45,247 bases of DNA. Origin: Pseudomonadota bacterium. Its GTDB lineage: Bacteria; Pseudomonadota; Gammaproteobacteria; Xanthomonadales; Rhodanobacteraceae. The stretch covers positions 1-45,247 of the forward strand of contig JAFEFR010000044.1 of assembly GCA_018240485.1 (NCBI GenBank), written 5' to 3'. The notes below the pieces were generated by a model, which saw nothing but the letters and a program-made list of their open reading frames with translations, had not been told where the DNA came from and did no database searches. The position numbers were made by a program, and so were the translations under genes. Below, piece by piece: positions 34,984 through 44,994 of the stretch. Positions within the stretch are counted from its first letter, which is position 1. Every line of letters begins with the position of its first letter.

Positions 34984-35140
34984 GCGGACCTGGAGGAGTG
35001 CGAGGATGTGCGATCGAATCGCCGTACGCGGGCTATTCTGCAACGATTCGCGCCCGTCGGCATTCGTTATGCACCGCTAACAGATGCTGCGCAGTTTGCC
35101 GGTATACTCGCACCGATTTCCACAGCGCAGACGGATGGCA

Positions 35141-38100
35141 ATGTCGAAACCTCGCCGAGGGCGCCCGCAAAACCTGCTCGTCGATCTTGCTTGCTTCCTA
35201 CCCGCCCTGGTTGCGTATGCGCTGGCGGTATTGGTTCGCCACCCTACGATCGTGCTCGTGCTGATCCTCGGCAACGCCTTGACCATGGCGGCAATCATCC
35301 ACGCCATGCGCCCCGCCAGTCGCAGCGGATTCGCCGCGCGCCTTGCCCCCGGCGGCGTCGCCTGCTTCCTCTTGAGCGGGGTCTATGCCGGAGTTTTTGC
35401 GATCGTGGCATTCTTTCCGGTGCGGCTTGCGCTTGCCGATGCCTCGCTGGTCACGGCGTTGCTGTTGTCGGCGGCGGCATTCGTTCTGCTGCTTGCACCG
35501 TGGCGCGCATGGCCTGCCTTCGGACTTGCCGCAGCGTTCGACCTGTTACCCCTCGCACGCACGCGGCTTGGCGCGATCGCCACGGTCGAACGCAGCGTCG
35601 ATCTCGCCCATCGCTTGACGGCGCGCGAAGAGTTGTTCTTCCCGCAAGGACTGATCGTGTCGTTGGCGCTGTTCTCGTTGACCTTCGGTGCGTTCGCCCT
35701 GGGCGATATCGCCGTGGCGCTACCCGACATCGATCGCCGCATCGCCCTCGGCATTTACGCGCTGTTGCTCGCGCCGATCGCGCAATGGTTCATCGCCCGG
35801 GCAGGCCTCAGGGCGATCGTCGAACAGCGCGATCTGTTGCTGCGACGCGAGCCCGCGGAGGCCGAACCGGCGCCCGCACCGACGACACGCGAAGACATTC
35901 TTCCGCCGAGTCTGTCGATCGAGCCCGCGCCATCGGCGCCGCCACCGGCAGCGCAACCGGATGCCGCCGAACTCGACGCGCGCTTGTTGCGTTGCGCGCG
36001 GGCGGGCGACGGTGCGGGCGCACTCCTCATGCTCGAGCAGGGCGCCAACCCGAATTCCGTGCCGGGGCCGGGTGATCGCGATCAACGCTCGGTCGTCGTT
36101 CTCGCCTGCGTCGCCCGCGACCTGGCCTTGCTGCGTGCGCTCATCGGCAAGGGCGCCGATCTCAATCGCTCTCATGCCGGGCTGGCGCCGTTGATCGCGG
36201 CGACGCGCGACAGCTACCTCGGTCGGCCCGATGTGGTCACGACGTTGCTGACCAACGGTGCCGATCCGAACTGCACGGACGCCGACGGCAACACGCCCCT
36301 GCATTTCGCCGTGCGTGTGGCCGAGCCGACCGTCGCCGCTCTGCTTTGCGACGCATCGGCGCCGATCGATGCCGTGAATCGCGAAGGCTACACGGCGCTC
36401 GGCGTCGCCTGTGCTGCGGGGCGCGTCGACCTCGTGCGCTTCCTGCTCGAACGTCGCGCCGGCATTGAAATCGCCCACGCCGTGCCGGCCTTGATCGCCG
36501 CCGCCGCCACGCCCGACGACGACACCGACATCGTCAAGCTGCTGCTCAAACGCGGTGCGCGCGTCGACATCGTCGATCGCCACGGACGCGCACCGCTCGC
36601 GATCGCCGCGCAACACGACAACGCGCATATCGCCGCGCTGTTGCTCAAATCCGGTGCTGTCATCGATGCCGCCGACTCTCTTGGCGTCACCGCCCTCATG
36701 GAGGCGGCGCTTGCCGGTGCGACCGAATCCCTCGACGTGCTCGGGGCACACGCGCCTGCGCTGGAACAAACCGATCACGTCGGCCGTACCGCGTTGATGT
36801 TTGCGGCCGAATCGATCCATGCCGACGACGATGGCGTTGCGCGCCTGCTTGCCCTTGGCGCATCACCAGCGACCGCCACGCCGGAAGGAAAGCGCGCGGT
36901 CGACTTTGCCGCTGCGGCAGGGCGTTGGCGCAGCGTCGCCTTGCTCGATCCGGAGTACGCATTGCCGGCCAGCGTCGATGCACCGGCGGCGCCGACGGCG
37001 CTCGCGCGCCCGGATTCGCCCGCTCACTTGCTCGATGCATTGCGGTTCGGCCATTGGCAGATCGCCGAGGATTTCGCCGACGTGCAACACGGCTGGCCGA
37101 TGACGCAACGCGCGCAGATGTTCGTCGATCTCGCCGCGCACGGCAACCCGACCGCGCGGTTGTGGCTGCTCGATCACGGACTGGATACAAATGCACGCCT
37201 GTCCGGCGGCGCCACGCTCGTCGGCGCCTTGCTCATGCAATTGCCGACCAGTCTGACGGCGCTGCGCGAAGCGCTCGATGCCGGCGCGCAAGTCACTGGC
37301 GTTGGCGTGCTCGATCCCATTCTCGACGCGCTCGTGCGTCATCCCGAGCGTCGCGAAGAACTCGAAACGCTCGCTCTGGCGATGATCGATCGCGGCGCGG
37401 ATATCTTCGCCGCCGACGCGAACCGGCAGACGCTGCTGGTACGCAGCATTGGCGCGGGCAGCGTGCGCACGACGCTGGCCTTGCTTGCGCGCGGCGTCGA
37501 CCCGAACGCGCGCGACCGGCGCGGTCGCTCGCCTTTGTTCGCTGCCTTCGCTTTGCCCTCGGGCATGGCCGAGACGATGACGCGTGCGCTGATCCGCGCG
37601 GGTGCCGATCCCGAGCTTGCCGCCGCCAACGGCGAAACCCCGCTCGGCATTGCCCTGGCTTCACCACATACCGGCCTGCGGCACTGGCTCGATTGGGCAC
37701 CGTGGAAGCTACCGCTGCGCCCGCTGCGCGAGACGGATCTGCATGCCGCCGCACAACGGGGCGACACGGCCGCCGTGGTGAAGCTGATCGAGCTTGGTCT
37801 GCCGATCGACGCACCCGATGCGAAGGGCGCCAGCGCCCTGATGCGCGCCGCCGGTGCGGGCAACGTGGAAATGCTTTCCCTGTTGCTCGAGCGCGGTGCC
37901 GACCTTGCGCAAACGGCGGCGAACGGTGCAACACCCCTGTCTGCGGCGATCACCGCACACCGCCCGAACATCGTCGAATTGCTGCTCGATCGCGGCCTGC
38001 CCGTCGACCAGCGCGTGCCGGGTGGCGGTACGCTGCTGATGATTGCGGCGGCCCTGGGTTATTCCGACATCGCCTCGATTCTGCTGGCTCGCGGCGCGGA

Positions 38101-38593
38101 TGCAAACGCGCACGACGAGCGGGGTACGCGCCCGTTGCATGCCGCTGCGCAATTCGCTTTCTCCCAGCGCGACACCGCACGCGCGCGGCAAGTGCTCGAA
38201 CTGCTCATCGCCAAGGGCGCGCAGCTCGATGCCTGCGACGAGCGCGGCACCAGTGCCTTGCATGTGCTGCTCGGCGCGCGCGCGGAACCGCGTAGCGTCG
38301 GCGATCAACAGCACCTGCAATCGCTGCTCTCGCTGTTTCTCGTCGGCCGCGCCAACGTCAATGGCCAGGACAATCGCGGCGTCTCGCCATTGCATGCCTG
38401 CGCGATGCACGGTTTGATGCTGCCTGCTCGCGCCTTGCTCGCCGCGCATGCCGATCCGGAAGCCATCGATTCGCTGGGCCGTACGCCACGCGAAGTCGCC
38501 GAACTGCTCGGCTTCATCGACGTCGCCGCCGAGCTGACCGTGCGCGTGCCGACGTCGATGCCGCTGCCCGGCAAACCGGCGGCGCAACGCTAG
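35141..38593 (+). CDS. Membrane-anchored ankyrin repeat protein
   Basis: Several N-terminal TMs, a Pro-rich linker and many ankyrin repeats (GNTPLHFA, GYTALGVA, GVTALMEA, GATPLSAA, GVSPLHAC). Confidence 0.92.
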   Translation: MSKPRRGRPQNLLVDLACFLPALVAYALAVLVRHPTIVLVLILGNALTMAAIIHAMRPASRSGFAARLAPGGVACFLLSGVYAGVFAIVAFFPVRLALADASLVTALLLSAAAFVLLLAPWRAWPAFGLAAAFDLLPLARTRLGAIATVERSVDLAHRLTAREELFFPQGLIVSLALFSLTFGAFALGDIAVALPDIDRRIALGIYALLLAPIAQWFIARAGLRAIVEQRDLLLRREPAEAEPAPAPTTREDILPPSLSIEPAPSAPPPAAQPDAAELDARLLRCARAGDGAGALLMLEQGANPNSVPGPGDRDQRSVVVLACVARDLALLRALIGKGADLNRSHAGLAPLIAATRDSYLGRPDVVTTLLTNGADPNCTDADGNTPLHFAVRVAEPTVAALLCDASAPIDAVNREGYTALGVACAAGRVDLVRFLLERRAGIEIAHAVPALIAAAATPDDDTDIVKLLLKRGARVDIVDRHGRAPLAIAAQHDNAHIAALLLKSGAVIDAADSLGVTALMEAALAGATESLDVLGAHAPALEQTDHVGRTALMFAAESIHADDDGVARLLALGASPATATPEGKRAVDFAAAAGRWRSVALLDPEYALPASVDAPAAPTALARPDSPAHLLDALRFGHWQIAEDFADVQHGWPMTQRAQMFVDLAAHGNPTARLWLLDHGLDTNARLSGGATLVGALLMQLPTSLTALREALDAGAQVTGVGVLDPILDALVRHPERREELETLALAMIDRGADIFAADANRQTLLVRSIGAGSVRTTLALLARGVDPNARDRRGRSPLFAAFALPSGMAETMTRALIRAGADPELAAANGETPLGIALASPHTGLRHWLDWAPWKLPLRPLRETDLHAAAQRGDTAAVVKLIELGLPIDAPDAKGASALMRAAGAGNVEMLSLLLERGADLAQTAANGATPLSAAITAHRPNIVELLLDRGLPVDQRVPGGGTLLMIAAALGYSDIASILLARGADANAHDERGTRPLHAAAQFAFSQRDTARARQVLELLIAKGAQLDACDERGTSALHVLLGARAEPRSVGDQQHLQSLLSLFLVGRANVNGQDNRGVSPLHACAMHGLMLPARALLAAHADPEAIDSLGRTPREVAELLGFIDVAAELTVRVPTSMPLPGKPAAQR

Positions 38594-39960: not shown

Positions 39961-40380
39961 TCAGCGCCGTCGGTGTTCGAGAAAATCCGCAGGCGTCATG
40001 ATCGCGACGCCGCGAAATGGATGCAGGTCGAGCAAATCATGATCGCTGCTGACCAAAACGACGGCCGCGCAGGAAACGGCCAGCGCTAGGAATTTGTCGT
40101 CCTTGGGATCGCGGCACGCCTTGGCGCTTTCGCGCACGTCACAAGACGTCGTGACTTTCCGATACAGATCGAGAAACGCACTACGCTCGCTGCGATCGAG
40201 ATAGCGGTCGAACTTCGCGCGCAACAACACGTTTTCGAGTTTTCGCAACGTGTCGGGCGACGTACAGATTTCATGGCCGGCGAGCGCCTTGCGAAAAGCC
40301 TGCGCCGGCGTCGATTCGACACGCAATGCCGCGCTGACCAGCGTGCTCGTGTCGAATACGACACGCTCAACGAAGCGCAT
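39961..40380 (-). CDS. PIN-domain toxin (VapC-like)
   Basis: VVFDTSTLVSA, CRDPKDDKFLALA, LVSSDHDLL. Overlaps the antitoxin. Confidence 0.9.
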   Translation of the reverse strand: MRFVERVVFDTSTLVSAALRVESTPAQAFRKALAGHEICTSPDTLRKLENVLLRAKFDRYLDRSERSAFLDLYRKVTTSCDVRESAKACRDPKDDKFLALAVSCAAVVLVSSDHDLLDLHPFRGVAIMTPADFLEHRRR

Positions 40381-40642
40381 CGACCATCCGGCTCACGTCG
40401 GCATCCGTCAGTTTTTTCGCCGCAGCGGACACCTTGCCAGCCACGCGCGCTCGATAGGCGTCATAGGCTTTCACGGCGGCGGCGCGGCGATCGCGCCCTT
40501 CGATCAACTCCTGCATGTCCGCTGGTGAAACAAGAAAGGCGACAGGGCGGCCGCGGCGAGTGATGGTCACCGGCTCGCGCTGCGCGGTGTCCAGCAATTC
40601 ACCAAAGCGGTTTTGCGCTTCAACCGACGACAAGGTTTTCAT
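40367..40642 (-). CDS. Phd/YefM family antitoxin
   Basis: MKTLSSVEAQNRFGELLD..EPVTITRRGRPVA. GAGG RBS. Confidence 0.92.
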   Translation of the reverse strand: MKTLSSVEAQNRFGELLDTAQREPVTITRRGRPVAFLVSPADMQELIEGRDRRAAAVKAYDAYRARVAGKVSAAAKKLTDADVSRMVDALR

Positions 40643-40720: not shown

Positions 40721-40754
40721 TTGACAAGCCGATTCCTGCGACGCAGATTGTCGC
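40721..40754 (+). promoter_or_regulatory. Sigma70 promoter of the WYL gene overlapped by putative WYL operator 1
   Basis: TTGACA-N17-CAGATT. The palindrome TGCGAC-GCAGATT-GTCGC (40737-54) straddles the -10. Confidence 0.7.
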
Positions 40755-40827
40755 CTTTTCATGCGACAAGGCGCACAACGAAGCACAGCGCCCGCGCATG
40801 CCATCCTCGCCCTACCGGATTGCGACC

Positions 40828-41859
40828 ATGTCCAAGCATCAGGATGCCTTGCTGCGCCAATGGAGCATGTTGCGCCGCGTGCCGCGCTATCCGGCCAAGG
40901 TCACCGTGCAAGCGTTGCGGGAGAAACTGGCCGACGATGGTTTCGAGATCACGCAGCGATCGCTGCAACGCGACCTCAACGAATTGTCGGGCGCGTTCGC
41001 CATCGTCTGCGACGACCGCGAGAAGCCCTACGGCTGGAGCTGGCAGAAGGACGCGCCGAGCCTCGACCTGCCCGGCCTCACGCCCGCACAGGCGCTGACG
41101 CTCGCGATGGCCGAGCAGCACCTGCAAAACCTGCTGCCCGCACCGATGCTCGAACAACTGCGCCCGTACTTCCTCGCCGCGCGCCAACGCCTCGACGCCG
41201 AACCTGCGCCACGCCGCAGCCGCCGCTGGCTCGACAAAGTTCGCTCGGTGCCGGCAACGCAGGCCTTGCTCGCGCCGTCCATCGACGCCGGCGTGCAGGA
41301 CGCGGTGACCGAGGCCCTGCTGCACGAACGCCAACTCGACATCTGCTACCGCCGCCGCGGCGAGCGCACGGATGCGCAGGCGCGCGTGCATCCACTCGCG
41401 CTGGTGCAGCGCGGGCCGGTGCTGTACCTGTCCTGCCGCTTCTACGACTACGAGGACGTGCGCATGCTGCCGCTGCATCGCATCTCGTTCGCGCAAGTGC
41501 GCGATGAGGCCGCCCGCTACCCGAAACACTTCTCGCTCGACGAGCAGATCGAACAAGGCGAATGGGCGTTCGGCTCCGGCAAGAAGATCAAACTGGTCGC
41601 GCTTTTCGAAGCCGAACACGGCGAGCATCTCTACGAAACGCCGCTGTCGAAGGATCAGAAGATCGACGTGTTGCCGGATGGCAAGCTGCGCGTCACCGCG
41701 ACGGTGGCCGATACTCCGCAGTTGGTGTGGTGGTTGTTGGGGTTTGGTTGCGGGATCGAAGTACAAAATACGAAGGCGCTTCGAACTCGCCTTCGTGAAG
41801 CTGCGATTGGAATGGCGAGTTTGTACCGAGAGAAGCGACGAGGAACGCCTAGACTGTAA
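40828..41859 (+). CDS. HTH-WYL-WCX transcriptional regulator
   Basis: wHTH ITQRSLQRDLNEL, WYL VHPLALVQRGPVLYL..LPLHRI, WCX ETPLSKDQ..QLVWWLLGFG. Confidence 0.95.
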   Translation: MSKHQDALLRQWSMLRRVPRYPAKVTVQALREKLADDGFEITQRSLQRDLNELSGAFAIVCDDREKPYGWSWQKDAPSLDLPGLTPAQALTLAMAEQHLQNLLPAPMLEQLRPYFLAARQRLDAEPAPRRSRRWLDKVRSVPATQALLAPSIDAGVQDAVTEALLHERQLDICYRRRGERTDAQARVHPLALVQRGPVLYLSCRFYDYEDVRMLPLHRISFAQVRDEAARYPKHFSLDEQIEQGEWAFGSGKKIKLVALFEAEHGEHLYETPLSKDQKIDVLPDGKLRVTATVADTPQLVWWLLGFGCGIEVQNTKALRTRLREAAIGMASLYREKRRGTPRL

Positions 41860-42508
41860 GCGGTTGTAGTGTTTGAAAATCCGTCGTCCACGTCCAGCTA
41901 GGCAAGCCATCTGACCTGTCTTGTCGGCCAACTAGGATGAGATATTCAGAGTTGTCCTTGGCGGAATAGCAAGCATCAACCTTGTTGCGCATATCGAGCA
42001 GCCGTTTTAATTGCTCTCGGCATCGTTTCGATGGCTCCAATCCCGGTCGATCGTATGTAACGATGACTTTGAGTGGCGCACGCCAGAACAGGAGCTTCCA
42101 CATTTCTTCCTGGATGAGATTGATCTTGTTCTCATGTTCGATGACGACGGCTAGGTGCGACGCGTACCCCCAGTGCGGATCGTTCTCATTCCCGCCAAAT
42201 AGACTCACGCCATTTACAAACATCATGTCAATCCGATTCTCCTCCTTACGGATTTGCTTCGGCTCAAAACGAAGATCTTGCCCACAAAGACCAAGAAGCC
42301 CTTTTTTCCCCATCCATTCAGCGAGATCTACTGGCACTTTTTTTTCGTTTGCGTCTCCTAGCATCCACGCGGTCCACTGGCTCCCATCCTCATAAGCGCC
42401 AAAGACTGCTCGCTGCTCCATGCGGCTCAAGAGCTCTTCCCACCGCAACCCGAATACTTTCAGAAAGTCCTGTGAGGAAATTATCCTTGCGTTTGATGTG
42501 TCGTTCAT
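41849..42508 (-). CDS. Hypothetical protein, putative PD-(D/E)XK-like nuclease
   Basis: Lower-GC ORF with the pattern E..RID...IEHEN...EEMWKL..LKVIVTY. Confidence 0.6.
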   Translation of the reverse strand: MNDTSNARIISSQDFLKVFGLRWEELLSRMEQRAVFGAYEDGSQWTAWMLGDANEKKVPVDLAEWMGKKGLLGLCGQDLRFEPKQIRKEENRIDMMFVNGVSLFGGNENDPHWGYASHLAVVIEHENKINLIQEEMWKLLFWRAPLKVIVTYDRPGLEPSKRCREQLKRLLDMRNKVDACYSAKDNSEYLILVGRQDRSDGLPSWTWTTDFQTLQPLTV

Positions 42509-42570: not shown

Positions 42571-42604
42571 TGCGACCCAATTTGTCGCATGTATGTTGCA
42601 TATT
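42571..42604 (+). promoter_or_regulatory. Putative WYL operator 2 with downstream -10
   Basis: Perfect TGCGAC-CCAATTT-GTCGCA (42571-89). CATATT lies 10 nt after TGTCGC. Confidence 0.7.
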
Positions 42605-42638: not shown

Positions 42639-43058
42639 ATGCCGAGACGCATGAGACGCGAGAGACTGTACGTCCCTTTTGAGTCGCTGACGACCAAAGA
42701 TCAGGAACGCCGCCGACAGCTCAACCTGCGCCTGCGCGAAATCGAGGCATGGGCGCATGCGCGTACTCCGGCGGTCGATACCATGAAATCGATGACGAAA
42801 TTTGCGCCGCGCCTGTTGCTGGCGGCGTGTATTCAAACTGCATTTCTGCCGGCGCTGGTCCCTGGCGCACCGCACGGGAGCGCGAATGTCGTGTCCGAAT
42901 ACCGCGTCGAGTACAAGCTGCGAAACCTCGGGACCGGGGCAATTGGCGAATCGCACGTTGCCTACGTGCGCGCGCCGAGCGAGGCCAACGTCGTGGCCGA
43001 ACTGCGTCGGCAGAACCCCGGCAAGGACGTAGTGATTCTTTCGTTGGTCGGGAAGTAG
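42639..43058 (+). CDS. Hypothetical protein (alternative start 42783 gives a signal-peptide-like N-terminus)
   Basis: First ATG after operator 2. Compact C-terminal domain EYRVEYKL..VRAPSEANVVAELRRQNPGKDVVILSL. 15 nt from the next gene. Confidence 0.55.
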   Translation: MPRRMRRERLYVPFESLTTKDQERRRQLNLRLREIEAWAHARTPAVDTMKSMTKFAPRLLLAACIQTAFLPALVPGAPHGSANVVSEYRVEYKLRNLGTGAIGESHVAYVRAPSEANVVAELRRQNPGKDVVILSLVGK

Positions 43059-43073
43059 GCACGGCAGCGCTGA

Positions 43074-43895
43074 ATGCAAACGCATGTCCCGAACGGTTGG
43101 GATCATCCAAGACTGGCGCTGCTGACCGACAACGGCATGGCGTGGCGCTTCCGTGCGCAACTCGCCACCAGGGATTACGCCGTGATCGATTGCCGTGGCG
43201 CATCCCCATCGGCAGTCTATGACGAGCTGGTGCGCCTGCAGCCCTATGTGATCGCCGTTTCCCTGCGTGATCCGCAACGGTATGCGACCACGGTTCTCGA
43301 TTATGCGAGTGCAAAACGATGCGCCGACTACTGCCTGTTTTGGGCAGGCCCGCAACAATGGCTGCGCGGCCTCGATCCGCAGTTGCTCGAGCACCTTGGG
43401 GAAAGCCATCTCCCGGAATATAACGAACGCTCGGCGCTGCAGGATGCGATCGCGCTTGCGCGCCTGTTGTTCATGACCGGCCATCCGGGCCTGATCAGCG
43501 TTGATCTTGTGGATATTCGCACGTGTTTGGCCAGTGGTGGACAGAATGCGCGCTTCGCCGTGGAGTCCATCTACATTCCCAATCCGCCACGCCGCCGCTC
43601 CTGTCACAAGCAGCTGCGCCGCCTGCGGCGGAAATTCGCCGATGTGCGCGGAGCAGGTATCTGCTTTGAACTGCAACATGGCTTTCGCCTGTCAGATTTG
43701 GATGTGGTTTTTGGAGCGATGCACGATTCCGTTTCTGAATCCACGCTCATTGTTGCCGGAGCTCCGAGCCATGTCCTGAGACCATGCGGACTGAAAATGC
43801 GCCTGCTGATCGGATTTGTTTGGCTACCGCCAGACAGCCGCGCAGCGACCATCGACAGTGACCTGCCCGGTTTTTTCAGACCACGGATAGGTTGA
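43074..43895 (+). CDS. Degenerate FtsZ-like protein (T7 loop, C-terminal domain and C-terminal peptide; no GTP-binding signature)
   Basis: PGLISVDLVDIRTCL resembles FtsZ PGL(I/M)NVDFADVRTVM. VRGAGICFELQHGFRLSDLDVVFGAMHDSVSESTLIVAG resembles ARGVLVNITAGFDLRLDEFETVGNTIRAFASDNATVVIG. The tail DLPGFFR resembles DIPAFLR. No GGGTGTG. Confidence 0.75.
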   Translation: MQTHVPNGWDHPRLALLTDNGMAWRFRAQLATRDYAVIDCRGASPSAVYDELVRLQPYVIAVSLRDPQRYATTVLDYASAKRCADYCLFWAGPQQWLRGLDPQLLEHLGESHLPEYNERSALQDAIALARLLFMTGHPGLISVDLVDIRTCLASGGQNARFAVESIYIPNPPRRRSCHKQLRRLRRKFADVRGAGICFELQHGFRLSDLDVVFGAMHDSVSESTLIVAGAPSHVLRPCGLKMRLLIGFVWLPPDSRAATIDSDLPGFFRPRIG

Positions 43896-43972: not shown

Positions 43973-44006
43973 ATACGACATTGTTTGTCGCAGGCATCAA
44001 GACAAT
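43973..44006 (+). promoter_or_regulatory. Putative WYL operator 3 with downstream -10
   Basis: ATACGAC-ATTGTTT-GTCGCA (43973-92). GACAAT lies 9 nt after TGTCGC. Confidence 0.7.
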
Positions 44007-44037: not shown

Positions 44038-44994
44038 ATGTCCGAACGCGACACCTTGCGCAGGCTGATCGACGCTTGTGCGCAAACACTCAACGCTGCC
44101 ATTCGCAGCGGAGACTATTCGACGCAGCATGTGCGGGAAATCGTCTCTGCCGCCAACCAAAAGATACAGATCATTGCGGACGAAACCGAGTGGCGCAGTT
44201 CTTCCGCCGCGGTGGGATTGCGTTCTTCGGTCAAGGATGCGTTCCAGGTCATTCATCATCGCCATGAAAGGAAGGGGGCCGCTCCCGGCCTGCCGACAGG
44301 CTTTGTCAAACTCGATGAATTGATGGGCGGATTCATGCCCGGCAGCCTGATTGCCCTGGCATCGGAGGCTTGTGCCGGCAAGTCCGCTCTGGCAGCGCAG
44401 ATCGCCGCGCATCGCGCCGTGGAGGACAAACAACCCGTTTGCGTGTTCTCGATGAAACGATCGGCCACGGAATACACGCTGCGCTTGATCGCGGCGTTGG
44501 GCTCGGTCGATCGGCAACACCTGCGCGATGGCAACTTTGAGGAAGATGACTGGCCCAGCGTGACGAAAGCGATCACGCAACTCAGCGATGCAAAAATTCT
44601 TGTTGATGCCACGACCACGCAGTCCATTCTCACCCTGCGCTCGCGCATGCGTGCCACGCTGCGCATGCATAAGGCGAAGCTGGTCGTGATCGACAGTCTG
44701 GAGCTGATGGACAAACCCGACTGCGCGGCTGACCTGCGCGGCATAGCCCGAGAATTCGATGCCGCCGTGCTGGTACTTGCCCAATCGCGCGGCGCAGTCG
44801 ATGTGTACGCACGCCTGCGTGATCATTCGCTCGAAGATCATGCCGATGCGATCCTGCTGCTGGACCGCAATCAAACCGATTCCCCCGAAAGCGCGCGGCT
44901 CATCGTCGCGCGCAATCGCAATGGCCGCACGGGCGAGGTGAAGCTGCGCTATTTCCCGCAATTCGCATGGTTTGAGGAGGCTCGAACGGCATGA
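44038..44994 (+). CDS. DnaB-like helicase paralog, N-terminally truncated and degenerate
   Basis: GLPTGFVKLDELMGGF..GSLI, AGKS Walker A, FSMK in place of FSLE, VIDSLELM, SLEDHADAILLLDR, ARNRNGRTG. Confidence 0.88.
   Translation: MSERDTLRRLIDACAQTLNAAIRSGDYSTQHVREIVSAANQKIQIIADETEWRSSSAAVGLRSSVKDAFQVIHHRHERKGAAPGLPTGFVKLDELMGGFMPGSLIALASEACAGKSALAAQIAAHRAVEDKQPVCVFSMKRSATEYTLRLIAALGSVDRQHLRDGNFEEDDWPSVTKAITQLSDAKILVDATTTQSILTLRSRMRATLRMHKAKLVVIDSLELMDKPDCAADLRGIAREFDAAVLVLAQSRGAVDVYARLRDHSLEDHADAILLLDRNQTDSPESARLIVARNRNGRTGEVKLRYFPQFAWFEEARTA

Follow-up and report, generated by a model that had tools for sequence, protein, structure and literature searches.

A predicted FtsZ-fold protein without GTP-binding motifs, encoded beside a WYL regulator and DriD/DdaA-type boxes in a Rhodanobacteraceae genome islet

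In a stretch of 45,247 nucleotides of DNA from a bacterium of the Rhodanobacteraceae (the window), an open reading frame encodes an FtsZ-like protein that lacks the GTP-binding motifs. What is new here is its setting: the gene is part of an inserted islet that also holds three DriD/DdaA-type boxes and the gene of a WYL regulator (Table 1). That the protein derives from FtsZ is very likely. As to its role, we tentatively favour, short of calling it probable, that the islet is switched on by single-stranded DNA and that its FtsZ copy attaches to the GTP face of host FtsZ, which would delay division.

Table 1. Features of the FtsZ-like gene and of the surrounding islet (positions refer to the window)
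Feature	Position	Strand	Basis or remark
Phd/PIN toxin-antitoxin pair, left edge of the islet	39961..40642	-	ParE-type pair in G003 and G064
DriD/DdaA-type candidate box before the WYL gene (self-regulation, as in driD)	40739..40753	.	same in G003 and G064
wHTH-WYL-WCX regulator	40798..41859	+	Pfam WYL and WCX over cut-off; PafC match, E 3.6e-6
Variable cargo gene, matching no known family and divergent from the 42573 box	41849..42508	-	family searches
CGAC-N7-GTCG candidate box ahead of co-oriented genes including the FtsZ-like gene	42573..42587	.	also faces the divergent minus-strand gene
139-aa ORF, 15 nt gap to the FtsZ-like gene	42639..43058	+	fusion, from comparison with G064
FtsZ-fold protein gene (predicted) without GTP-binding motifs, P0001	43074..43895	+	273 aa; predicted models, profile match, codon-position identity
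Family motif L-T-[DN]-x4-W-R-F in the slot of the FtsZ glycine-rich T1 loop	43119..43151	+	placement by eye from secondary structure
T7-loop/helix H8 relic GHPGLISVDLVDIR	43479..43520	+	D144 and D147 kept; Asn replaced by S142; pLDDT <50
Relic of helix H10 and strand S9, the remainder of the polymer-forming face	43680..43763	+	profile-profile match
Tail IDSDLPGFFRPRIG, with a faint likeness to the FtsZ C-terminal peptide and confined to this lineage	43851..43895	+	matrix score; relatives
Candidate box ATACGAC-N7-GTCGCA before the DnaB-like gene	43976..43990	.	outer bases as in the DriD operator probe (PMC9186387)
Second DnaB	44038..44994	+	also L010 14795-15784 (-) in G003 and L042 10787-11752 (+) in G064

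A rare gene family with a predicted FtsZ fold

The reading frame is a real coding gene of a rare, fast-diverging family. All of its 273 codons are open, identity to the ortholog in G003 amounts to 0.41/0.55/0.33 at the three codon positions, and no indel is listed for four sequencing runs mapped to the locus. The family comprises eight distinct sequences including the query, which are 250-305 aa long and share 23-65% identity; these counts leave out P0010, which falls into the same cluster as P0008, and P0002, which is 99% identical to P0001. The source listing places the G003 protein under Rudaea sp. and P0005 under Rhodanobacteraceae. A strong match to the protein was found in two of the 55 genomes of the genus and in none of 400 further genomes of the order, with six candidates scored per genome. 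Four weak genome matches (E of about 5e-4 to 1e-3) were dropped, and the one inspected was antisense to another gene. A prophage origin is unsupported because searches of viral contigs, metagenome contigs, phages and plasmids yielded no relative; the window was also searched for tRNA genes and contains none. The host possesses one normal ftsZ, which adjoins ftsA on contig C381.

Sequence searches gave little indication of this relationship. Single-sequence searches of Pfam, PDB, NCBIfam, PADLOC and PHROG with the 273-aa protein returned no FtsZ match, and no score over cut-off was reached for PF00091, PF12327 or NCBIfam. The models of known anti-phage systems in PADLOC and PHROG likewise left the protein unmatched, and among the other window genes tested PADLOC recognized the WYL gene only. 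With a profile of seven family sequences, FtsZ occupied ten of the 19 rows returned from the PDB, at E values of only 0.7-1.8. Alignment by sequence reaches the C-terminal half only, where profile-profile comparison with 21 FtsZs gave a probability of 77.7 and an E value of 1.9e-5, in agreement with the C-terminal subdomain proposed in the initial annotation. The N-domain could not be aligned with FtsZ by sequence, and a global profile alignment was unsuccessful.

The fold became apparent in a structure model built from nine alignment rows (mean pLDDT 71, pTM 0.71). Its best-modelled part is an N-terminal alpha/beta domain of about 135 aa, with pLDDT values of about 80-94 over residues 11-100, while residues 137-156 and 257-273, the T7 stretch included, are below 50. 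All 42 matches listed by Foldseek are FtsZ, the best with an E value of 3.7e-8, which bears out the structural relationship to FtsZ claimed initially. In VIA-align the best match was FtsZ 2VAW (Z 11.1, rmsd 4.1, 217 aligned residues, model residues 11-251 on residues 11-316 of the chain); the top nine rows consisted of FtsZ, CetZ, PhuZ and TubZ, and unrelated folds appeared from Z 7.8 downwards. As the superposition on 2VAW extends over both domains, the model describes a whole, shrunken FtsZ rather than a C-domain with a stub. The predicted models contain a Rossmann-type N-domain, helix H7 and an alpha/beta C-domain in one chain, as is characteristic of the FtsZ/tubulin superfamily. The N-terminus, originally described as short and devoid of GGGTGTG, is indeed shortened, by about 65 residues relative to FtsZ, and lacks this motif, but it is no stub: it is modelled as a well-folded domain that superposes on the FtsZ N-domain. 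By eye, a receiver domain was considered for this part, and no receiver domain was prominent in the VIA-align results.

In the Atlas, TM values to FtsZ were 0.70 for P0001 and 0.71 for P0008; a separate model of P0008, built from three sequences, had a pLDDT of 47. The two Atlas queries retrieved 28 and 29 unnamed look-alike clusters, which indicate resemblance only and not kinship; the three displayed per query are 234-287 aa long, and one cluster per query is FtsZ_C.

Retained and lost features of FtsZ

With FtsZ (PF00091 and PF12327; PDB 2VAW, 6UMK) the protein shares the predicted two-domain fold, the T7-H8 and H10-S9 relics and both T7 aspartates, whereas the T1/T4 glycine motifs, the T7 asparagine, the conserved tail and the location in the dcw cluster are missing. 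Neither GGG nor GxG[TS]G occurs in any of the eight family sequences, and with them the GGGTG[TS]G signature and the glycine-rich T1 loop are absent. The T7-like stretch GHPGLISVDLVDIR aligns with the T7 loop of host FtsZ, PGLINVDFADVR, at 10 of 19 identical positions (pairwise E 5e-4), so the likeness pointed out earlier holds, as does the retention of both aspartates, but the preceding asparagine is a serine. On a T7 matrix derived from real FtsZs GHPGLISVDLVDIR scores 19.2 bits, compared with at least 50 bits for real loops, and this score is attained by two of the 2266 ORFs of the genome, presumably FtsZ and this ORF. Across the family the first aspartate (equivalent to D209) is found in eight of eight sequences, the second (equivalent to D212) in seven and the asparagine in none, and hence the N-x-D-x-x-D motif of FtsZ is incomplete in all of them.

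The family spans 23-65% identity, and its columns of highest confidence in the profile match to FtsZ are those of T7-H8 and of H10-S9. Structure alone may explain part of their retention, since helix H8 is also capped by D-x-x-D and both H10 and S9 are core elements. T7, H8, H10 and S9 are four elements that together make up one subunit's share of the contacts in the filament interface (PMC8936486). In Staphylococcus aureus FtsZ each of the substitutions N208L, D210N and D213N was reported to suppress assembly, and mutation of the T7 asparagine to abolish polymerisation (PMC8936486). It is therefore doubtful that the protein triggers GTP hydrolysis, as had been suggested, given that this asparagine is absent from all eight sequences.

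Where FtsZ has its glycine-rich T1 loop, the family motif is placed, and in alignment A4 L16, T18, W24, R25 and F26 are invariant. Family-wide, the most invariant residues are T18, W24, R25, F26, L88, F89, W96, P102 and R130. They lie mostly in the N-domain and are not FtsZ residues; as a sequence pattern, they point to another ligand or partner.

The protein ends in IDSDLPGFFRPRIG, which had been likened to the FtsZ peptide that binds FtsA, ZipA and MinC. Such a stretch is present (43851-43892), but on a matrix of 15 real FtsZ tails it scores 0.6 bits, whereas the real tails score at least 26.3, and 27 of 2266 ORF ends score as high. Glycine and proline occupy positions at which real tails have A/T and R/Q/K/M, and the tail is absent from all seven distinct relatives, including those at 65% and 60% identity. 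The linker before it measures about 10 residues, compared with about 68 in host FtsZ, and the combination of long linker and conserved C-terminal peptide typical of FtsZ is not found. The tail is probably not needed, and the postulated competition for FtsA, ZipA and MinC can hardly be maintained for a tail that is confined to this lineage and lies marginally above chance.

The truC-ubiB islet and its candidate boxes

The FtsZ-like gene is housed in an islet between truC and ubiB. These two genes are 5-7 kb apart in G000, G003 and G064. Among five other genomes of the genus that were tested, a truC match was found in three, with ubiB within about 60 nt (two genomes) or about 790 nt (one genome). 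A close WYL ortholog and the second DnaB occur in G000, G003 and G064 only among the 55 genomes of the genus. The islet is arranged in the order toxin-antitoxin pair, WYL gene, variable cargo, small gene, slot and DnaB-like gene, and the slot is occupied by the FtsZ-like gene in G000 and G003 and by a 701-aa AAA ATPase in G064. Between G000 and G003 the FtsZ-like proteins are 30% identical and their neighbours 62-94%. In the 139-aa ORF, the opening ~48 residues of a gene that is ~334 aa long in G064 are joined in frame to the ~90-aa small gene (from 42783), which has a signal-peptide-like start; this fusion is a deletion footprint. The small gene lies upstream of the FtsZ-like gene in G000 and G003, and G064 has retained it too.

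The second DnaB lacks the N-terminal domain, carries SMKR in place of SMEM, which we take to be the loss of the catalytic glutamate, has its Walker A motif changed from RPSMGKT to EACAGKS and is missing two loops. The arginine of K-x-R-N-G, presumably the arginine finger, is kept, and the same changes are seen in all three genomes. The gene is inverted in G003, and in both G000 and G003 it is preceded by a box of its own. Judged from these motifs, the second DnaB resembles the FtsZ copy in that its own site appears to be lost and the part acting on a neighbour to be kept.

Several further genes were observed in and near the islets. The low-GC cargo gene of the window contains RIDM and IEHEN stretches that by eye resemble a PD-(D/E)xK nuclease. 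Directly behind the WYL gene, uracil-DNA-glycosylase-like cargo is encoded at L010 12747-13478 (G003) and at L042 6330-7265 (G064), the two being mutually unlike. The occupant of the G064 slot (L042 8669-10774) is a double AAA ATPase whose matches to IetA-like proteins stay below cut-off and whose gene has its own box 14 nt upstream. At 35084-38593 the window encodes a 1169-aa protein with N-terminal hydrophobic helices and, by eye, many ankyrin-like repeats, which is 69% identical in G003.

A terminator scan revealed two palindromes matching CGAC-N7-GTCG, the motif of DriD and DdaA (PMC9186387, PMC13010146, PMC10853764, PMC12392091). Within the 3674 bases surrounding the gene, this pattern from the literature is found two times where 0.14 occurrences are expected (1 of 200 shuffles); a pattern drawn after the sites had been seen (three matches, 0 of 100 shuffles) was not counted. 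The bare motif without position and spacer says little, because it occurs 253 times in the genome and six times in the window. Each of the three islets carries three boxes before genes, and G003 has a fourth match inside a cargo gene. With a matrix made from G003 and G064 alone, the three sites of the window rank first to third in the 3-Mb genome (25.2, 24.3 and 21.4 bits; next site 19.1 bits), the WYL-gene box being shared by descent among the islets and not an independent match. Boxes thus precede both the putative target genes and the regulator gene, as in DriD and DdaA; for driD, a box before its own gene and self-regulation were reported (PMC10853764). The regulator has the wHTH-WYL-WCX architecture of DriD and DdaA, and its recognition helix, RSLQR, resembles by eye R37-x-x-E40-R41 of DriD (PMC10853764) and conforms to R-x-x-[EQ]-R, while CapW-type WYL repressors use other sites (PMC11662680). 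Three other WYL paralogs (L077, L078 and L080) have two, three and three perfect boxes within about 4 kb. Two of these paralogs adjoin a gene starting with an RLSKSR motif.

In G003 the same pair of small gene and FtsZ-like gene follows a box (L010 13499), and the preceding same-strand gene ends 21 nt before this box, which can therefore serve only these two genes. In the window, the 42573 box is 486 nt away from the start codon of the FtsZ-like gene and could serve the divergent gene; no sigma-70-type promoter was found. At the P0005 locus (L043), one of three loci with context, a WYL gene of this kind is missing from 16.8 kb, and the sole box, about 170 nt upstream of the FtsZ-like gene, has one mismatch; the genome has a match to the WYL protein elsewhere (E 3e-56). 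Taken together, we regard it as likely that the FtsZ-like gene belongs to the WYL regulon. In Caulobacter DriD activates didA and in Acinetobacter DdaA activates aciT, each a division inhibitor gene, via CGAC-N7-GTCG (PMC9186387, PMC13010146), and DdaA also governs defence genes (PMC12392091). By analogy we infer that the WYL regulator is activated by single-stranded DNA here as well, and this regulatory context, insofar as the analogy holds, independently favours a division inhibitor. In contrast to the DriD and DdaA systems, this one has its best sites only within a single 5-kb islet and a copy of FtsZ as its candidate effector, while DidA and AciT are not described as FtsZ homologs in the literature cited here.

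A possible brake on division and alternative functions

In the favoured reading, the neighbouring WYL protein would sense single-stranded DNA and turn the boxes on, and the retained T7/H8/H10/S9 face of the FtsZ copy would dock on the GTP-bearing face of host FtsZ. The growing end of a filament exposes T7, and arriving monomers add via their GTP face (PMC8936486; bioRxiv 10.1101/2020.02.25.965095). The protein would mimic such an end and either sequester GTP-FtsZ monomers or obstruct the shrinking end, and its dead top face would allow no further subunit to add. A subunit with the T7 face only cannot cap the growing end because it can bind only where a GTP face is exposed, i.e., at the shrinking end or on a free monomer. 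The block of growth envisaged at the outset is therefore doubtful, all the more as such mutants are described as weak inhibitors. T7-face mutations of FtsZ were found to be toxic and top-face mutations not (PMC8936486; bioRxiv 10.1101/2020.02.25.965095, citing Redick 2005, Du 2018), and top-face-dead mutants inhibit weakly (bioRxiv 10.1101/2020.02.25.965095, citing the same work). The engineered top-face mutants combine a T7 face with a dead top face like the protein described here, but they are point mutants that have the tail and the asparagine, whereas this is a natural, deeply diverged gene. A brake of this kind would require abundant protein, which an inducible promoter permits.

The predicted fold, the retained interface elements, the boxes and the keeping of a normal host ftsZ count in favour of such a brake. 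Against it stand the missing T7 asparagine, the low pLDDT of the T7 stretch, the possibility that D-x-x-D is a mere helix cap, the weakness of top-face-dead mutants, invariant residues unlike those of FtsZ, a divergence more rapid than a protein that binds a conserved target should show, the lack of a WYL gene at L043, the AAA ATPase in the G064 slot and the distance of the box. A complex prediction of the protein with host FtsZ and GTP scored 0.08, which counts neither for nor against.

The crippled DnaB next door would act likewise on replication. An extension of the brake, which we consider rather unlikely, is that the islet constitutes a mobile checkpoint cassette of hollowed-out FtsZ and DnaB triggered by single-stranded DNA, with one WYL sensor halting division and replication together. 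FtsZ would then keep only the trans-acting T7 aspartates and DnaB only the trans-acting arginine, and each copy would dock on the host polymer, discharge or stall it and be unable to continue it. Owing to the DnaB pairing, the idea of a poison-subunit checkpoint is directly testable in a 5-kb cassette. If true, division would be stopped in a new way, by a natural inhibitor that derives from FtsZ and presents the T7 face; such a protein would also be a tool to probe treadmilling polarity and would give access to the many unnamed short FtsZ-like clusters. In titles and abstract beginnings of the largely open-access literature, no description of an FtsZ copy without GTP site in a WYL regulon was found. 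None of SulA, DidA and AciT, the inhibitors of division known to be induced by damage, is known to be a copy of FtsZ. SulA, MciZ, T7 Gp0.4 and lambda Kil are FtsZ inhibitors with folds unrelated to the FtsZ-like protein; known FtsZ binders, namely SulA, MciZ and by prediction Gp0.4, cover the T7 face (PMC13423816), which the FtsZ-like protein would itself present.

The same face allows another reading, which has a modest chance of being right: the protein could be a bait that displays its T7 face and is bound by Gp0.4- or Kil-like phage inhibitors in place of FtsZ, or a sensor, in which inhibitor binding triggers another islet gene. SulA and MciZ were shown, and T7 Gp0.4 predicted, to bind the synergy-loop face (PMC13423816), the face retained here, and the Gp0.4-FtsZ complex is reported to trigger CapRel immunity (PMC13423816). 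Fast divergence and slot swapping fit an arms race, and DdaA control extends to defence genes (PMC12392091). However, a bait should closely resemble the host surface, while identity to solved FtsZs is only about 13%, an effector domain is not attached, and PADLOC recognized neither the protein nor any other tested window gene except the WYL gene.

We think it unlikely that the family has taken up a new function on the FtsZ scaffold, with the T7 relic being structural and the T-D-x4-WRF, CLF and W-x5-P motifs binding a different ligand or partner, such as another nucleotide, nucleic acid or the product of the small upstream gene. The invariant columns, which lie mostly in the N-domain and are unlike FtsZ, the superior modelling of this domain and the small gene upstream in G000 and G003 would agree with it, but it would be left unexplained why the second aspartate and H10-S9 match FtsZ better than the rest of the C-domain, and G064 keeps the small gene without an FtsZ-like gene. 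That a spare ftsZ copy without current function is decaying is very unlikely: its rarity in genus and order and the upstream gene broken by fusion would be expected, but not eight open, divergent sequences with invariant columns, nor the codon-position identities and the lack of indels. Least credible, and highly improbable, is a filament capper that also competes for FtsA/ZipA via its tail, which is positioned like that of FtsZ, ranks among the best-scoring ORF ends and may be a relic, given that P0003 ends right before the equivalent stretch, but which fails on score, residues, linker and occurrence in relatives as described above.

Outside division, the FtsZ/tubulin superfamily is represented by CetZ, TubZ and PhuZ, as well as by FtsZl1 and FtsZl2; the first three are nucleotide-binding filament formers, and the nucleotide-binding motif is lost in the FtsZ-like family. 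In other conflict systems, rare FtsZ/tubulin domains and inactive MinD/FtsK domains are described as effectors (PMC7159879).
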